Below, in pieces: positions 698-39,170 of a stretch of 45,980 bases of DNA. Source of the DNA: a virus (Duplodnaviria > Heunggongvirae > Uroviricota > Caudoviricetes); IMG/VR virus record IMGVR_UViG_2529292882_000016. One strand, written 5' to 3'. A model generated the notes under the pieces. That model had not been told where the DNA came from. It did no database searches and saw only the letters and a list, made by a program, of their open reading frames with translations. The position numbers and the translations under genes were made by a program. How positions within the stretch are numbered: the stretch's first letter is position 1; each line of letters begins with the position of its first letter.

Positions 698-1060
698 GGG
701 GCTGATTCTGGATTCGACGGGATTTGCGAAACCCAAGGTGCATGCCGAGGGGCGGTTGGCCTCGTAAAAAGCCGCAAAAAATAGTCGCAAACGACGAAAA
801 CTACGCTTTAGCAGCTTAATAACCTGCTTAGAGCCCTCTCTCCCTAGCCTCCGCTCTTAGGACGGGGATCAAGAGAGGTCAAACCCAAAAGAGATCGCGT
901 GGAAGCCCTGCCTGGGGTTGAAGCGTTAAAACTTAATCAGGCTAGTTTGTTAGTGGCGTGTCCGTCCGCAGCTGGCAAGCGAATGTAAAGACTGACTAAG
1001 CATGTAGTACCGAGGATGTAGGAATTTCGGACGCGGGTTCAACTCCCGCCAGCTCCACCA
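698..1060 (+). ncRNA. ssrA: tmRNA (SsrA, transfer-messenger RNA)
   Basis: Starts GGGGCTGATTCTGGATTCGACGGG, contains the tag-reading-frame region (GCAAACGACGAAAACTACGCTTTAGCAGCTTAA) and ends GGGTTCAACTCCCGCCAGCTCCACCA; about 363 nt, matching E. coli ssrA. Confidence 0.95.
1034..1060. repeat. 27-bp direct repeat CGGGTTCAACTCCCGCCAGCTCCACCA (att core at the intact ssrA end)
   Basis: Identical 27-mer recurs at 41072..41098; flanking bases differ on both sides (g/a upstream, c/a downstream). Confidence 0.85.
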
Positions 1061-28130: not shown

Positions 28131-28165
28131 AAGGACCGGCGGCTTAGCCGGTTCCTTTTTATTTT
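28131..28165. terminator. Bidirectional rho-independent terminator between the cassette and Q
   Basis: AAAAAGGACCGGCGGCTTAGCCGGTTCCTTTTTATTTT: GC stem flanked by an A-run and a T-run. Confidence 0.7.
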
Positions 28166-32079: not shown

Positions 32080-32285
32080 GGGCGCACCTCCGCCGTAGTG
32101 ATGTATTTAACCGGACTGCTTTTCATTGCGATGGTTTCACACATCTCCGCTGCTTTACGTTCCGCTGTTTTCCTGGATTTATAGCGGCGGTGCCAGACAG
32201 ATGTATCCGTGCGAACTGATACATCGTTTCTGTATTCCGTTGTAGAAATAATAATTTCGTAACTAATCATGGACGCGCCTCCCAT
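32076..32285 (-). CDS. Hypothetical protein (69 aa)
   Basis: ORF only; start may be the internal ATG at 32270. Confidence 0.35.
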   Translation of the reverse strand: MGGASMISYEIIISTTEYRNDVSVRTDTSVWHRRYKSRKTAERKAAEMCETIAMKSSPVKYITTAEVRP

Positions 32286-32929
32286 TGATTACGGCGGAAA
32301 GCAGTGTGATTCAGGCTGGTTTCAGCCTCATGGAATGCTTCAATACAGCTCTCGTAGTACCGCATTGTGCGCAGACTTAACCCAAGCTGAAGCATCATCA
32401 GGCCATCAAGGGTGATGTAATAACCACGCAGGGAGTCACCATAGATGTGATAAGTGCCCGGTATGAAATTGCGGGTAAAAAAATCGCGCGAGCAGTTCAG
32501 ATACTCGATTTTGTCGACGATGTTCTGGTGCATGCGCTTGAAGTGGCAGGCAACATGCAGGGAGAAAATAACAGCTTTGCCGTTGACGACTTCGATTTTC
32601 AGGTATGGGGAAGTTGGGACTGTAGCCATGATGGCAGCCTCCGTATGCAATGGATAACTTCCACCACCGGAGCTGCGAAACTCATGGGTGGTGAACTGAA
32701 CAGGGTTCGCAGTACCGGCGCATACGGAAACCGGCGAGCCTTTCGGCTCCCCTGCCCAGCCCACCATAATTCTGGCGTGCGCGAGCATGGACGATAAAAA
32801 AGACGCTGGCGCGTCGTATATCGCCGTATGCAATTCCGGGCTGCGACCCCCGGCACCCGCTTTATAAGGTGCAGAGACAGTGTAACGTCCCGAAATTGCA
32901 GAATCAATATTTAGGCTTGAAACATTCAT
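32267..32929 (-). CDS. Hypothetical early protein (220 aa)
   Basis: Long ORF in the early-right operon; no motif recognised. Confidence 0.45.
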   Translation of the reverse strand: MNVSSLNIDSAISGRYTVSAPYKAGAGGRSPELHTAIYDAPASFLSSMLAHARIMVGWAGEPKGSPVSVCAGTANPVQFTTHEFRSSGGGSYPLHTEAAIMATVPTSPYLKIEVVNGKAVIFSLHVACHFKRMHQNIVDKIEYLNCSRDFFTRNFIPGTYHIYGDSLRGYYITLDGLMMLQLGLSLRTMRYYESCIEAFHEAETSLNHTAFRRNQWEARP

Positions 32930-32953
32930 ATGCTTACTGGTATTTTTACTAAC

Positions 32954-33044
32954 GCAAATGTTCTTGGATGTTACTGGCTTACTTCTTTTGTGAAGTTGCC
33001 TTTACTAACGTTGAGCGAGCCGGGTCACTCCCCGGCTTTTTTTT
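32954..33044 (+). ncRNA. Candidate OOP-like antisense small RNA (~90 nt)
   Basis: Promoter-like -35 TTGAAA (32917..32922), 18-bp spacer, -10 TATTTT (32941..32946), ending in terminator GCCGGG-TCACTC-CCCGGC plus T8 (33019..33044); plus strand in an intergenic gap of the minus-strand operon. Confidence 0.25.
33019..33044 (+). terminator. Rho-independent terminator (GCCGGG/CCCGGC stem plus T8) on the plus strand
   Basis: Hairpin and eight T residues read directly; no plus-strand protein gene lies upstream. Confidence 0.55.
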
Positions 33045-33793
33045 CACCGCTGCCAACCAATAACCTGAAATAACCCCATTTTCGGGTGATACCAGCGAGT
33101 CCCTCGCGGTTCTGCTTCCTCCATAACCCGATAAAAAGCAGCCATAAACGGTTCCACAGCAACAATTGCGCGACGTGATAACAATCCGTCCGGCGTCATA
33201 AACTCGTGGGTATCTGTAGGAATTTGATAGGCGTTCACCAGATTGCGGCATTTATCATCTGACAAACCGGTTTTTGCTTTCAGTTGGCGATATCCGGCAT
33301 AGCCCTCACGAATGGTACCCCTTTTGATTTGCTCAACTGTTTCGGCAACATGGCTGACTTTTTCTTCCACCTGAGTGATCCGTTTCTGCTGACGAACGGC
33401 TTCAAGAGCCATCGCAGCAACCATTTCGATTTCGCTCATTGGCTTACGGATCTGTTCTTCCAGTTCGCGCCAGCGATCTACCAGGCGAGCAGTGAATTCA
33501 GGACAGAGCTGTGCGACGACAATGATGCTGTCTCGCTTACCTTGTTCTCCTTCAAACAGGTAATGCTCATATTGAACTTTAAAACCTAAGTTATTGATTT
33601 TCTCGGAAACAGCCATTGGCGGTTTCCGGATGATGTTTTTAGCAACCAGGCGTTCGATACTACGTTTAACATCTGAGTGCTGACTACCCACCAGCTCTGC
33701 GATCTCAACGCTGGTCATGGATGCTTTATCGTTAAAAATTGCGGTGTTCACTGCCATCTCCTTACGGATAAATTCTTTTGAGATTCCGCACAT
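33044..33793 (-). CDS. Rha-family phage regulatory protein (249 aa; start uncertain)
   Basis: N-terminal MTSVEIAELVGSQHSDVKRSIERL typical of the Rha family; candidate starts at 33793 and 33757. Confidence 0.65.
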   Translation of the reverse strand: MCGISKEFIRKEMAVNTAIFNDKASMTSVEIAELVGSQHSDVKRSIERLVAKNIIRKPPMAVSEKINNLGFKVQYEHYLFEGEQGKRDSIIVVAQLCPEFTARLVDRWRELEEQIRKPMSEIEMVAAMALEAVRQQKRITQVEEKVSHVAETVEQIKRGTIREGYAGYRQLKAKTGLSDDKCRNLVNAYQIPTDTHEFMTPDGLLSRRAIVAVEPFMAAFYRVMEEAEPRGTRWYHPKMGLFQVIGWQR

Positions 33794-33870: not shown

Positions 33871-34326
33871 ATGAATTTAATGAACGTCTATGAAAAAATT
33901 GAGAATCACCTACTAGCTATCTATAAAATCAGCCCACACGATCGTGAGACGGGTAACTTGGTAAAATGCAGAGCAGTCAAACTAACTCAGCTTTATTTAC
34001 TTGTTTACAAACACGCCAATACCTCATTTATCAGGTCCAGCCATAAGATCTCGTTATCAGAATTGATATACACAGCAAGTGGTAAGTTAATTGCAGAACC
34101 ACAATCTGTTCCCCCAGCACTTGTTCTTCTCATCCTAAAAGAACAGCTTAATCAGCTTGCAAATGACCCCGACAATCTGCTTGTTGGAGTAGAGAACAAG
34201 CTGAAAGAATGGCTTTTTGAGCGCCTTGAATGGCACCAACAACTTTGTTCAGAGTTGCCAACTCTTCCTGAATTGCGCTGGAGTGATCTTCCGAATGAAT
34301 TATTTGGTCTGAAACAAGAAAGCTGA
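33871..34326 (+). CDS. Hypothetical AT-rich protein (151 aa), opposite orientation within the early region
   Basis: Strong RBS AAGGAGG 6 nt upstream of ATG 33871; followed by a 12-bp perfect hairpin at 34349..34380. Confidence 0.5.
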   Translation: MNLMNVYEKIENHLLAIYKISPHDRETGNLVKCRAVKLTQLYLLVYKHANTSFIRSSHKISLSELIYTASGKLIAEPQSVPPALVLLILKEQLNQLANDPDNLLVGVENKLKEWLFERLEWHQQLCSELPTLPELRWSDLPNELFGLKQES

Positions 34327-34540
34327 TTCTGGGTTCTAAATCTTTCAATACAGAGCGCAGCGAATGCTCTGCGCTCTGTAGTTTCAACAAGGTGTGTTCG
34401 GTCGCCAAACCAGCAATTTCTGCATTGTTAGCCAAGTGAATAATCCATTCACGCAGTTCACTAGGTGTAAGATCCCCTGCATTGATACATGGAGCCTTTT
34501 TCACTGCTTCATTATTACTATGCTGCATATCTCTTCCCAT
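34148..34540 (-). CDS. Hypothetical protein (130 aa) coupled to the cro-like gene; 3' half overlaps the plus-strand gene
   Basis: ATG at 34540 overlaps the stop of the upstream cro-like ORF; 179-nt antisense overlap with 33871..34326 makes its full extent doubtful. Confidence 0.3.
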   Translation of the reverse strand: MGRDMQHSNNEAVKKAPCINAGDLTPSELREWIIHLANNAEIAGLATEHTLLKLQSAEHSLRSVLKDLEPRISFLVSDQIIHSEDHSSAIQEELATLNKVVGAIQGAQKAILSACSLLQQADCRGHLQAD

Positions 34541-34749
34541 CACTTCTCATCCTCTGTGTGCGCTAAGCTTGGATGTGTATATGGAATGTTCGGATCCAGA
34601 TGGCAGAGAATGGCAACATCCTCCGGAACGCCCCGCGTTTTCCACTTTCCAACTCCCTGACTACCACGAGGCCTTCCTTTCTTTGGGAACCTGCGGCCAA
34701 TAGCGGCATTGGTCTTAAATTGAGTTTTTAATATTTCATAAAGGGTCAT
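34540..34749 (-). CDS. Cro-like small regulator (69 aa)
   Basis: First gene leftward of the divergent promoter region opposite the cI-like gene; basic; GAGG RBS. No sequence similarity to lambda Cro recognised. Confidence 0.4.
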   Translation of the reverse strand: MTLYEILKTQFKTNAAIGRRFPKKGRPRGSQGVGKWKTRGVPEDVAILCHLDPNIPYTHPSLAHTEDEK

Positions 34750-34759
34750 TCTTTAGCCT

Positions 34760-34840
34760 CACACTGGATACTCTGTTATCCAAGAATGTTAAACGCGAGA
34801 ACCCAAAGTATCAAGAAATTCTGTTACTTTAGTATCAGCA
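34760..34840. promoter_or_regulatory. Divergent promoter/operator region (OR-like) with repeated GTATC/GATAC half-sites
   Basis: GGATACTCTGTTATCC (34766..34781), AGTATCA at 34807 and 34831, TCTGTTAC at 34822; between the divergently transcribed cro-like and cI-like genes. Confidence 0.4.
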
Positions 34841-34860: not shown

Positions 34861-35517
34861 ATGAAATCTTTAGGTGAACGCCTCATCAACGCACGACAAA
34901 AAGCTGGGTTAACGCAAGATGCGTTGGCTAAAAAAGCAGGGGTCACCAGAGTTGCAATCAGTAAAGCCGAGCAAGGCCTTACAAAAAGTTTCAACGGTGA
35001 CACCCTTTTTAAAGTCGCAGCTGCACTGCAGTGTTCACCGCAGTGGCTTCAGAACGGAGATGAAAAAGATAAGCATTGGGAAAATAATGTTAAGAGCTGC
35101 CCACAGAGAGACACAGCACACTCTTACCCTGTAATTAACTGGGTTCAGGCAGGATTATTCGCAACTGCTGGTGATGACTACAACATGTATGATCAGGATA
35201 ATTGGAGGCATTCTGTAAAATACGCTGGTGAGAGGGGGTTCTGGCTGGAAGTGCACGGAGACTCAATGACTTCGCCCGTAGGAATAACATTTCCTGAAGG
35301 AATGTCGATCCTTGTCAACCCAGATAAAGAAGTTTTTTCAGGGTGTTACGTCATCGCCAGAAAAAAATCTACCAATGAAGCAACATTCAAAAAATATATT
35401 TCTGAAATGGGAAAGGCGTTTCTAAAGCCCCTTAATCCACAATATCCAATCATAGAAATGGACAATGATTGCGAAATAGTAGGTGTTGTGGTTGATGCCA
35501 GGTGGGATATTTTCTGA
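34861..35517 (+). CDS. cI-type repressor, HTH plus LexA-like S24 peptidase domain (218 aa from ATG 34861)
   Basis: N-terminal HTH (LTQDALAKKAGVTRVAISKAEQG) and C-terminal S24-like region (WLEVHGDSMTSPVGITFPEGM...VIARKK...); AAGGAG RBS. Confidence 0.85.
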   Translation: MKSLGERLINARQKAGLTQDALAKKAGVTRVAISKAEQGLTKSFNGDTLFKVAAALQCSPQWLQNGDEKDKHWENNVKSCPQRDTAHSYPVINWVQAGLFATAGDDYNMYDQDNWRHSVKYAGERGFWLEVHGDSMTSPVGITFPEGMSILVNPDKEVFSGCYVIARKKSTNEATFKKYISEMGKAFLKPLNPQYPIIEMDNDCEIVGVVVDARWDIF

Positions 35518-37946: not shown

Positions 37947-38770
37947 AAAAAATTATTTTTGCTTTAGCCATTGTTCTGCCGACTATTGGCCTTGTCGGTT
38001 GCGATCGCGTTGAACCAGGTAATGTTGGCATCAAGGTAAATAAACTGGGCGACGACAAAGGCGTCGGTGAGGTGGTCGGTGTTGGTCGCTACTGGACTGG
38101 CTGGAATACTGAAGTTTATATCTTCCCCACCTTCAAACAAATGAAGACCTACGATGAACCGTTCAGTTTCCAGATGAGTGACGGTACAACCATCGGCTAT
38201 CACATCGGTGTGGCCTACAAAGTTGATCCATCCAAAGTTACCACGGTGTTTCAGACCTACCGCAAAGGCGTGGATGACATTACCGACACTGACCTGCGCC
38301 AGAAGATCGCCGACGCACTCAACCGACTGGCCAGCAAAATGACCACCGACAAATTTATCGATGGCGGGAAGTCTGAACTACTGGATGCAGCTCTTAAAGA
38401 CATTCAGGAGGAAATGACACCCATCGGTATTCAGGTAATGAGCCTCTCATATGTAGGTAAGCCGGAGTACCCGTCAACCGTTATCGACAGCATTAATGCC
38501 AAAGTCACGGCGAACCAGAAAACACTGCAGCGCGAGCAGGAAGTAAAACAGCGCGAAGCGGAAGCCAATATGTTGCGCGCAGAAGCTGCCGGACAGGCTG
38601 ATGCGATTCGCACAAAAGCCCAGGCCGAAGCTGATGCTATTCGTTTACGCGGTGAAGCTCTGCGCCAGAACCCCGGCGTTATGGAGCTGGAAGCCATCAA
38701 TAAATGGAACGGCACACTGCCGCAATACATGACCAGCGGTGCTAATACACCATTTATCCAGGTTAAATAA
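37943..38770 (+). CDS. SPFH/band-7 (prohibitin/stomatin-like) domain lipoprotein (275 aa)
   Basis: Signal peptide with lipobox LVGC; central SPFH-like region and Ala/Glu-rich coiled-coil tail (EAEANMLRAEAAGQADAIRTKAQAEADAIRLRGEALRQNPGVMELEAINKWNG). Confidence 0.75.
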   Translation: MKKIIFALAIVLPTIGLVGCDRVEPGNVGIKVNKLGDDKGVGEVVGVGRYWTGWNTEVYIFPTFKQMKTYDEPFSFQMSDGTTIGYHIGVAYKVDPSKVTTVFQTYRKGVDDITDTDLRQKIADALNRLASKMTTDKFIDGGKSELLDAALKDIQEEMTPIGIQVMSLSYVGKPEYPSTVIDSINAKVTANQKTLQREQEVKQREAEANMLRAEAAGQADAIRTKAQAEADAIRLRGEALRQNPGVMELEAINKWNGTLPQYMTSGANTPFIQVK

Positions 38771-38804
38771 CTTATACGCCCGGCAGGCCGCCGGGCTAAG
38801 GGAA

Positions 38805-39170
38805 ATGCAAATGAACACCCAGAATACTCAACCGCAAATAATGAACTATGACCCGAATCTGACGTCATGCGGACGCATGGCAAAACAAACCGTTCGATTA
38901 ACTTTCGGGCTATGGGAATACCGCGAAACATTCGAAGTTACTGTCGGCGGCAATCTGACCGGACTGGATGTTATCAGTTGCGCTATTGAAAGCCTGTACG
39001 CAACGCTGCCTTATGAAGAAGTCGAGGATGAGCGCGATATCATAGCCACCATTAATATCGGCGGACTGGAATGCAAGGATGAAAACCTGTCCGGAGAGCT
39101 CTGGCTTGCCGGAATGCTTATCTCAGCAGAAATTATCAGCATTGAACCCGCTACAAACATACGACTCTGA
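38805..39170 (+). CDS. Hypothetical protein (121 aa)
   Basis: ORF with AGGGA upstream of ATG 38805; preceded by a GC-rich intercistronic hairpin (GCCCGGC...GCCGGGC). Confidence 0.45.
   Translation: MQMNTQNTQPQIMNYDPNLTSCGRMAKQTVRLTFGLWEYRETFEVTVGGNLTGLDVISCAIESLYATLPYEEVEDERDIIATINIGGLECKDENLSGELWLAGMLISAEIISIEPATNIRL

Follow-up and report, generated by a model that had tools for sequence, protein, structure and literature searches.

Among the closest described counterparts of the element reported here are two small antisense RNAs of phage control regions, OOP of lambda and sar of P22. The OOP RNA (77 nucleotides, nt) lies at the cII-O junction and overlaps about 55 nt of the cII coding end, and the sar RNA (68-69 nt) belongs to the immI region, starts inside ant, covers the ant ribosome-binding site and ends at an intercistronic terminator. 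Further points of comparison are the c4 RNA of P1/P7, the IsrK RNA of Gifsy-1, for which no divergent RNA was described and antQ, not roi, is the upstream gene (PMC4825925), and the prophage RNAs AgvB/AsxR (EcOnc01-03) and HnrS. The latter are 51-66 nt long and lie in the late region downstream of PR', and EcOnc01-03 share a conserved 3' part with a variable 5' part (PMC4104026, PMC13502914). The DNA analysed here is IMG/VR virus record IMGVR_UViG_2529292882_000016, a stretch of 45,980 nt (the window) that represents a lambdoid prophage of Escherichia coli. In the 114-nt gap 3' of its Roi/Rha/Ant-like gene (roi, minus strand), a promoter-like site and an intrinsic terminator lie on the plus strand. 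Segment 32913-33046 is read here, tentatively and at somewhat below even confidence, as a self-contained plus-strand gene for a small non-coding RNA that would act as a cis-antisense. Among the explanations weighed, the most likely appears to be an undescribed RNA gene of about 80-93 nt whose product would regulate the transcript crossing the junction between roi and the isrK RNA gene.

The terminator of this segment (33017..33044, plus strand) is the strongest intrinsic terminator in the window and lies far beyond chance. An earlier note on this DNA had described a hairpin GCCGGG-TCACTC-CCCGGC at 33019-33036 followed by eight T residues at 33037-33044, and both are present on the plus strand; a scanner lengthens the stem to 8 bp, of which 6 are GC pairs, around the same loop (33017-33038, GAGCCGGG-TCACTC-CCCGGCTT). 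When the criteria are strict (a perfect stem of at least 7 bp, at least 5 GC pairs and at least 7 T in 8), no other site qualifies on either strand of the 45,980 nt, and at a looser cut 20 dinucleotide shuffles yielded one site in total. On the minus strand no T-run accompanies the hairpin, and thus the terminator is unidirectional and serves the plus strand only. It points against all flanking genes. The element exists in three types, termed alleles A, B and C, and the terminator is conserved in all of them: the loop varies, the tail holds 7-9 T in every copy, and the variants GAGCTGGG and GAGCUGGG, together with the outer G.U pair, are compatible with a plus-strand RNA only.

Upstream of the terminator, the -35 hexamer TTGAAA (32917-32922), the 18-nt spacer and the -10 hexamer TATTTT (32941-32946) all stand where the earlier note had placed them. 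The -35 hexamer is kept in alleles A, B and C (TTGGAA in one copy), and the -10 is of the extended form TGgTATTTT (32938..32946, with TG at 32938-32939), which reads TGaTATCTT in allele B. All alleles retain the TG and the spacer length, and 6 of the 18 spacer bases differ between A and B. Only one of seven promoter-motif sites in 6 kb carries the TG extension, and that one is the candidate site; when the scanner was run on the allele B and C regions, the same TG-bearing promoter-like site was the only one called in each. The site stands back-to-back with the divergent isrK promoter (32879..32907, minus strand; -35 TTGATT 32907..32902, 17-nt spacer, -10 TACACT 32884..32879, start at about 32872), the two -35 hexamers being 9 nt apart. 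Since the isrK promoter is intact in roi relatives that lack the element, the plus-strand promoter is part of the cassette that the element forms and not of the isrK module.

From the position of the -10, the RNA start is deduced to lie at 32952-32954, and the predicted transcript (32952..33044, plus strand) would measure about 87-93 nt in allele A, about 85 nt in B and about 80 nt in C. The plus strand of 32954-33044 is predicted to fold at -31.4 kcal/mol (z = -4.0). A 10-nt box, GTTCTTGGAT (32960..32969), stands at or close to the predicted 5' end; it is identical in A, B and C and sits at +1 to +10 in B and C; the exceptions are one copy with GTTCTTGGCT and one with GTTGTTGGAT, the latter from a contig at 1.4x coverage. 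The box is followed by hairpin 1 (32976..33000), which is GGC-UU-ACUUC/UUUUGU/GAAGU-U-GCC in allele A and, at the same place, GGAGC-C-GUUU/UAUGCG/AAAC-A-GCUCC in allele B and GGC-CUGC/UUUAU/GCAG-UU-GCC in allele C. Per-allele folds beat shuffles on both strands (z from -2.1 to -4.8 on the plus strand and from -2.2 to -5.6 on the minus strand); they were used in place of RNAalifold, which on a MAFFT alignment of the 13 unique RNAs misaligned the hairpin types and returned a meaningless consensus. A hairpin rebuilt from three stems and stable on both strands is as expected for sense/antisense recognition through mirror hairpins. Wobble-compatible changes in hairpin 1 favour the plus strand in allele A, where GAAGU to GAGGU and GCC to GUC are compatible with that strand only, and the minus strand in allele B, and the hairpins are read as mattering on both RNAs, as for a sense/antisense pair.

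No open reading frame (ORF) is conserved across the alleles on either strand: the plus-strand ATG at 32968 is absent from C and that at 32930 from B. A small protein or type I toxin was rejected on these losses and on the lack of any minus-strand ORF in 32930-33043. A repeated TTTACTAACG, to which the earlier note had also drawn attention, is present at 32945 and 33001 as a 10-nt direct repeat, but it is not conserved, being mutated within allele A (TTTACCAACG) and absent from B and C. Its candidacy as a protein-binding site was dropped, as it is not enriched in the window and is unconserved both between and within alleles.

The distribution of the element was examined in complete genomes, in selected loci and in viral and metagenomic collections. 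By Megablast, the 201-nt region was found in 265 of 5,426 complete E. coli genomes and the second version alone in 246 (207 of them near full length); the element is present in about 207-219 of the 5,426, or about 4-5%. Carriers of the second version include O103:H2 12009, O111, O55:H7 and some O157:H7 strains, and the element is also found in Stx2a- and Stx2d-converting phages. Among 100 sources, comprising 93 loci fetched via the Roi protein, six earlier loci and the window, 66 hold the element, in 17 unique versions that fall into the three types. A context-free pattern scan of IMG/VR returned 91 copies, with promoter motif and terminator together in all 91 and every copy placed between the isrK promoter and the 3' end of roi. 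Flank-anchored scans that left the interior free gave 70 copies in IMG/VR and 28 in metagenomes (promoter and terminator in 28/28 of the metagenome copies). Each of these pattern-defined and flank-anchored copies is allele A, B or C and lies at the roi-isrK junction, and no further allele was found in IMG/VR or the metagenomes with the flanks alone as anchors.

Between types, the RNA body is 61-68% identical and the plus-strand promoter segment 67-92%, compared with 95-100% for the isrK promoter, 89-93% for the terminator and 92-99% for the next 250 nt of roi; within a type, the RNA body is 97-100% identical. On these identities, the cassette interior is a divergence hot-spot with discrete alleles. 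Fixed across the types are the -35, the 18-nt spacing, TGnTAT(T/C)TT, the box and GTTGAG(C/T)GAGCCGGGT...CCCGGC-T7-9. Homology to the isrK modules of other phages (phiP27, SfV, ST64B and others) stops at about 32908-32915, which is 2-9 nt before the -35, and at the opposite edge the breakpoint with alternative roi alleles is near 33085, some 40 nt into roi, with the last ~13 roi codons travelling with the cassette. Judged from these breakpoints, the cassette edges coincide with the proposed transcription unit. In cassette-less roi relatives, the same slot is occupied by a small ORF in the L004 type and by an additional antirepressor gene in the phiP27 type, and the isrK promoter is intact in both. 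The alleles assort independently of immunity type and of C4 loop type, which is consistent with a self-contained unit in which one DNA encodes both sense and antisense. The earlier note's proposal of a self-contained plus-strand promoter/terminator unit amid minus-strand genes, with a predicted non-coding transcript of about 90 nt, is supported and is considerably strengthened by its conservation in three alleles.

Under the cis-antisense reading, a sigma-70 promoter (TTGAAA, 18 nt, TGnTATTTT), back-to-back with that of isrK, would start the RNA at about 32952-32954, and the terminator would end it at about 33040-33044, which would give about 90 nt made up of the 5' box, a central stem-loop and the terminator hairpin. 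Such an RNA would be perfectly complementary to the intercistronic stretch of minus-strand transcripts that run from roi to isrK-C4-antirepressor and the O/P-like genes. Recognition would begin with loop-loop contact between hairpin 1 and the mirror hairpin on the target; the duplex might then be cut (ribonuclease III type) or elongation impeded, and in either case the antirepressor and replication genes further down would be expressed independently of early transcription or at a level reduced relative to it. Alleles A, B and C may represent specificity types that avoid cross-talk between co-resident prophages. As for the target, the earlier note had named both the 3' end of the Rha-family gene and the 5' untranslated region of 32267..32929. 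The first holds for one base of the stop codon, as the roi/rha stop (TCA on the plus strand, 33044-33046) has one base in common with the terminator T-run, but the rest of the coding region is not overlapped. The second does not stand: the downstream unit has its own promoter and starts at about 32872, and the candidate would thus be antisense only to transcripts reading out of roi. It is distinctly doubtful that the role extends further, to that of a type-specific third RNA regulator which, with isrK and C4, would act on an 'immI-like' switch and set spontaneous induction, hence Shiga-toxin release in Stx2a/Stx2d phages, the types preventing cross-talk among prophages of Shiga-toxin-producing E. 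coli.

Several observations weigh against the cis-antisense reading. The literature yielded no RNA sequencing, transcription start site or Term-seq data on an element-bearing strain. By itself, the promoter motif occurs at chance frequency (7 sites in 6 kb compared with 7.4 +/- 2.7 in shuffles), its 18-nt spacer is suboptimal and its -10 is weak. Furthermore, the conserved spacer block TCATAT is the opposite-strand ATG of an ORF annotated as 'ash', and part of the apparent promoter conservation could have that other cause. The predicted RNA covers no ribosome-binding site or coding sequence, which makes the pay-off of pairing speculative; the nearest start codons, at 32929 (a doubtful ORF) and 32632 (the Rha-domain gene), both lie outside 32952-33044. 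A purely cis-antisense RNA leaves the invariant 10-nt 5' box unexplained. In allele B, an internal C.A mismatch of hairpin 1 and two of its sub-variants are all wobble-compatible on the minus strand only, where alone it forms a continuous 10-bp helix, and hairpin 1 may matter on the minus-strand RNA instead of, or besides, the plus-strand RNA. Finally, because a plus-strand ORF separates cro from roi, transcription of roi may come from pR or from a promoter of its own.

The box is the chief argument for another reading, in which the same RNA would act in trans as an Hfq-type small RNA (sRNA), with the 5' box (GUUCUUGGAU) as the seed for a host mRNA or sRNA or a distant phage mRNA, and the hairpin and U-rich terminator as scaffold or Hfq module. 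The box is the sole invariant stretch in a body of 61-68% identity and forms the extreme 5' end in alleles B and C; a conserved seed and a terminator with a tail of 7-9 U are features of the class, and the layout resembles that of many enterobacterial 5'-seed sRNAs. In addition, Hfq-bound prophage sRNAs are common in pathogenic E. coli (PMC4104026, PMC13502914). However, no conserved complementary site was found within 2.5 kb on either side in the element-bearing loci, part of the box (GUUC) pairs with GAGC beside the terminator in the predicted fold, and the element is confined to the roi-isrK junction, which is more in keeping with a local role. Action in trans is thus regarded as unlikely. 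A scan of the window by RNAduplex with the 5' 32 nt was uninformative, giving a background of -25 to -30 kcal/mol everywhere. The gene for the cI-like repressor was considered as a trans target and rejected: the box complement ATCCAAGAAT at 34778-34787 is the only near-perfect site in the window and is present in 7 of the 66 loci. This site, which abuts the start of the longest cI ORF, falls within the operator region and precedes the probable true start at 34862. A role as a sponge or mimic of C4 or isrK loops was also rejected, as the alleles do not co-vary with the C4 loop variants, of which there are at least 10.

The back-to-back promoters, with -35 hexamers 9 nt apart, may also be taken to mean that the RNA is a functionless by-product of divergent firing upstream of the isrK promoter and that the terminator is an insulator for roi, cro and cI. 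The terminator is the best-conserved part of the cassette (89-93%), and the phiP27-type junction likewise has a hairpin with a T-rich tail, non-homologous and in the same direction, after the roi stop. An insulator, however, would have no need of an invariant 10-nt box or of a hairpin re-formed, with its structure preserved, in three alleles. The L004-type and phiP27 phages, moreover, have a working isrK promoter with neither the cassette nor such a terminator, and divergent firing is therefore no inherent problem of the isrK promoter. This explanation is considered rather improbable.

Less probable still, and given little credence here, is the proposal that only the minus-strand transcript is functional, the hairpins being processing, stability or protein-binding elements of the roi-isrK RNA and the plus-strand T-run and promoter motif incidental. 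A GC-rich hairpin directly after a stop codon can shield the upstream cistron from 3' exonucleases. The continuous helix of allele B hairpin 1 and its two sub-variants, G.U-compatible on that strand only, agree with such a role, as do minus-strand folds with z down to -5.6. It leaves unexplained, however, the conserved run of 6-9 A between stop codon and hairpin and the fixed spacing of -35, TG and -10, and the allele A variants and the terminator variant GAGCUGGG are wobble-compatible on the plus strand only. A lambdoid nut site (boxA-boxB) on the minus strand was rejected, since the window holds no second hairpin or boxA-like CGCTCAACG copy; no N-like protein family was found among the ORFs adjoining cI. 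That nothing here is functional and the motifs merely hitch-hike at a recombination junction is highly improbable: all copies share one context in closely related E. coli prophages, and shared ancestry explains part of the conservation, but the short motifs and the hairpin are kept in an interior of 61-68% identity and the terminator is of a quality far beyond chance.

The module on the other side of the candidate consists largely of RNA genes. The isrK promoter was read from the sequence, as its 8/12 match to the consensus falls under the scanner cut-off, and its predicted start is position 1 of the Rfam isrK match. The isrK RNA (RF01394; 32872..32796, minus strand) is full length and includes its own terminator (57 bits, gathering score 50), and the C4 antisense RNA (RF01695; 32771..32684, minus strand) is also full length (83.3 bits, gathering score 45); both models match in alleles B and C and in cassette-less loci. 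They are followed by a coding sequence of 121 amino acids for a Rha-domain (AnrP-like) protein (32267..32632, minus strand; Pfam Phage_pRha, phrog_995) with a GGAGG Shine-Dalgarno sequence. By eye, complementarity is seen between the C4 loop ...CCGUAUGC... and GCAUACGG, a stretch overlapping the GGAGG of ATG 32632. The module follows the design of P1 immI and Gifsy-1 isrK-orf45-anrP (PMC4825925). In the window (32684-32872, minus strand) and in loci L020-L190, the C4 loop, the isrK site and the match at the ribosome-binding site of ATG 32632 co-vary in at least five sets, with at least 10 C4 loop sequences (e.g., CCGTATGCG, CCTTGAGCG and CCGATAACG). These sets resemble hetero-immunity classes of the P1/P7 c4 type among the lambdoid prophages of E. 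coli.

The 220-amino-acid gene that the earlier note had drawn at 32267..32929 is for the most part not a protein gene, as isrK and C4 lie inside it and its 5' part is without codon bias. This ORF (minus strand) is the 'ash family protein' of RefSeq relatives and matches Pfam PF10554 over amino acids 16-108 (E = 8.7e-17). Among 48 unique variants, the ratio over the three codon positions is 58:62:58 in the first 297 nt, compared with 32:31:74, a third-position excess, in the Rha-domain part. The 'ash' frame is nevertheless open in 48/48 variants, whereas the other two frames have stops in 47-48. The ORF spans the isrK promoter, isrK, C4 and the internal gene's ribosome-binding site, and its ATG (32929) sits within the spacer of the plus-strand promoter, upstream of the isrK start. 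Either family PF10554 represents translated RNA genes, or ribosomes transit the region without amino-acid constraint. The annotation of hundreds of genomes is affected, given that their 'ash family protein' ORF coincides with two RNA genes.

The wider setting is that of a lambdoid early region. Near the left end of the window lies a full-length tmRNA gene (698-1060, plus strand; 296 bits in Rfam), a position which suggests integration of the prophage at ssrA. The cI-like repressor gene (34786/34862-35517, plus strand) has two possible starts: the longest ORF begins at 34786, and ATG 34862 (MKSLGERL...) has a GGAG Shine-Dalgarno sequence and is more likely the start. The minus strand carries a pR-like TTGATA-17-TAACAT at 34814..34786, followed by the cro-like gene (34749..34540) and a 131-amino-acid ORF. 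Between the cro side and roi, a plus-strand ORF of 151 amino acids (33872-34326) has a strong AGGAGG Shine-Dalgarno sequence and overlaps the 3' end of the convergent 131-amino-acid ORF by 179 nt. It had no match in Pfam or PHROG; RefSeq shows a plus-strand hypothetical protein at the equivalent site of a related prophage. The Roi/Rha/Ant-like gene itself (33793..33044, minus strand; Pfam Phage_pRha, phrog_63) has an uncertain true start, possibly near 33757. Past the gap, the minus-strand genes are the 'ash' ORF, two small ORFs, an O-like initiator and a DnaC-like loader. Elsewhere in the window, a hairpin ACCGGC...GCCGGT at 28135-28152 is flanked by T-runs on both strands. It was scored as a terminator in each orientation and resembles a bidirectional terminator.

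If the candidate is transcribed, prophages carried by about 4-5% of complete E. coli genomes would have an undescribed RNA gene in the region that controls lysis and lysogeny. The prophage group includes Stx2a- and Stx2d-converting phages and prophages of O157, O103, O111, O145 and O55 strains, and an RNA transcribed next to the isrK/C4 antirepressor switch might affect both the induction of the prophage and the release of toxin. In addition, three structure-preserving alleles in near-identical flanks would be a natural system for studying how antisense RNA specificity diversifies.

Searches of known families and published accounts returned no description of the locus. The plus strand of 32917-33044 had no match at gathering score in Rfam release 15, and hits at E values up to 10 were noise only (Vault, 16 bits; SorY, 13 bits), far under the cut-offs. 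The locus is not mentioned in the IsrK study, the EcOnc catalogue, the HnrS study or a 2025 review of phage sRNAs, and full-text searches with sequence strings returned nothing. The element is a good candidate for an undescribed small RNA of a known general kind.

The earlier note had called it OOP-like, which is apt for orientation and general position, but the two are dissimilar in sequence and the candidate has a partner gene other than cII. Like OOP, the candidate would be a short, constitutive-looking transcript that has a promoter-like site of its own, is directed against the early-right operon at a point before the replication genes and ends in a strong intrinsic terminator, with a 5' hairpin region ahead of the terminator hairpin. 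Unlike OOP, it reaches into the Roi/Ant-like gene by one stop-codon base only and is otherwise intercistronic, and it occurs in three discrete alleles. No cII homologue adjoins it (the gene there is Phage_pRha in Pfam and phrog_63), lambda 38300-38900 shares only words of 7-9 nt with alleles A, B and C in blastn-short (E at least 0.19), and a phage database search with the element returned no lambda match.

The P22 sar RNA resembles the candidate as a small antisense RNA of an antirepressor control region that ends at an intercistronic terminator. It differs in covering the ribosome-binding site of ant, whereas the candidate covers none, and the antirepressor-like gene near the candidate is controlled by isrK/C4, about 300 nt away. 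In the phiP27 locus (L034, 3236-3330), a non-homologous hairpin GGCCGG...CCGGCC with TTTCTT points against roi directly after its stop, and that hairpin is faced by a TTGATT-16-GATATT within the 5' part of the following (antirepressor) gene. This arrangement predicts an antisense RNA of about 55 nt over the antirepressor Shine-Dalgarno sequence and start, a layout similar to that of P22 sar.

In CopA/CopT and RNAI/RNAII, stem-loops diverge into specificity types with their structure kept and with mirror hairpins on both strands. The candidate resembles these systems in its diverged stem-loops only, as it shares neither homology nor a replication-control context with them, and loop-loop pairing is proposed by analogy. 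AgvB/AsxR and HnrS resemble it as short prophage RNAs of pathogenic E. coli that have a terminator, lie against their neighbours and exist in related, non-identical copies; compared with EcOnc01-03, however, the candidate conserves its 5' box and terminator and varies in the middle, and it belongs to the early/immunity region. With respect to P1/P7 c4 and Gifsy-1 IsrK, it is the immediate divergent neighbour of a bona fide isrK-C4-antirepressor module. It lies on the opposite strand to that module and is unrelated to it in sequence; as with c4, its sequences fall into discrete types with preserved structure.

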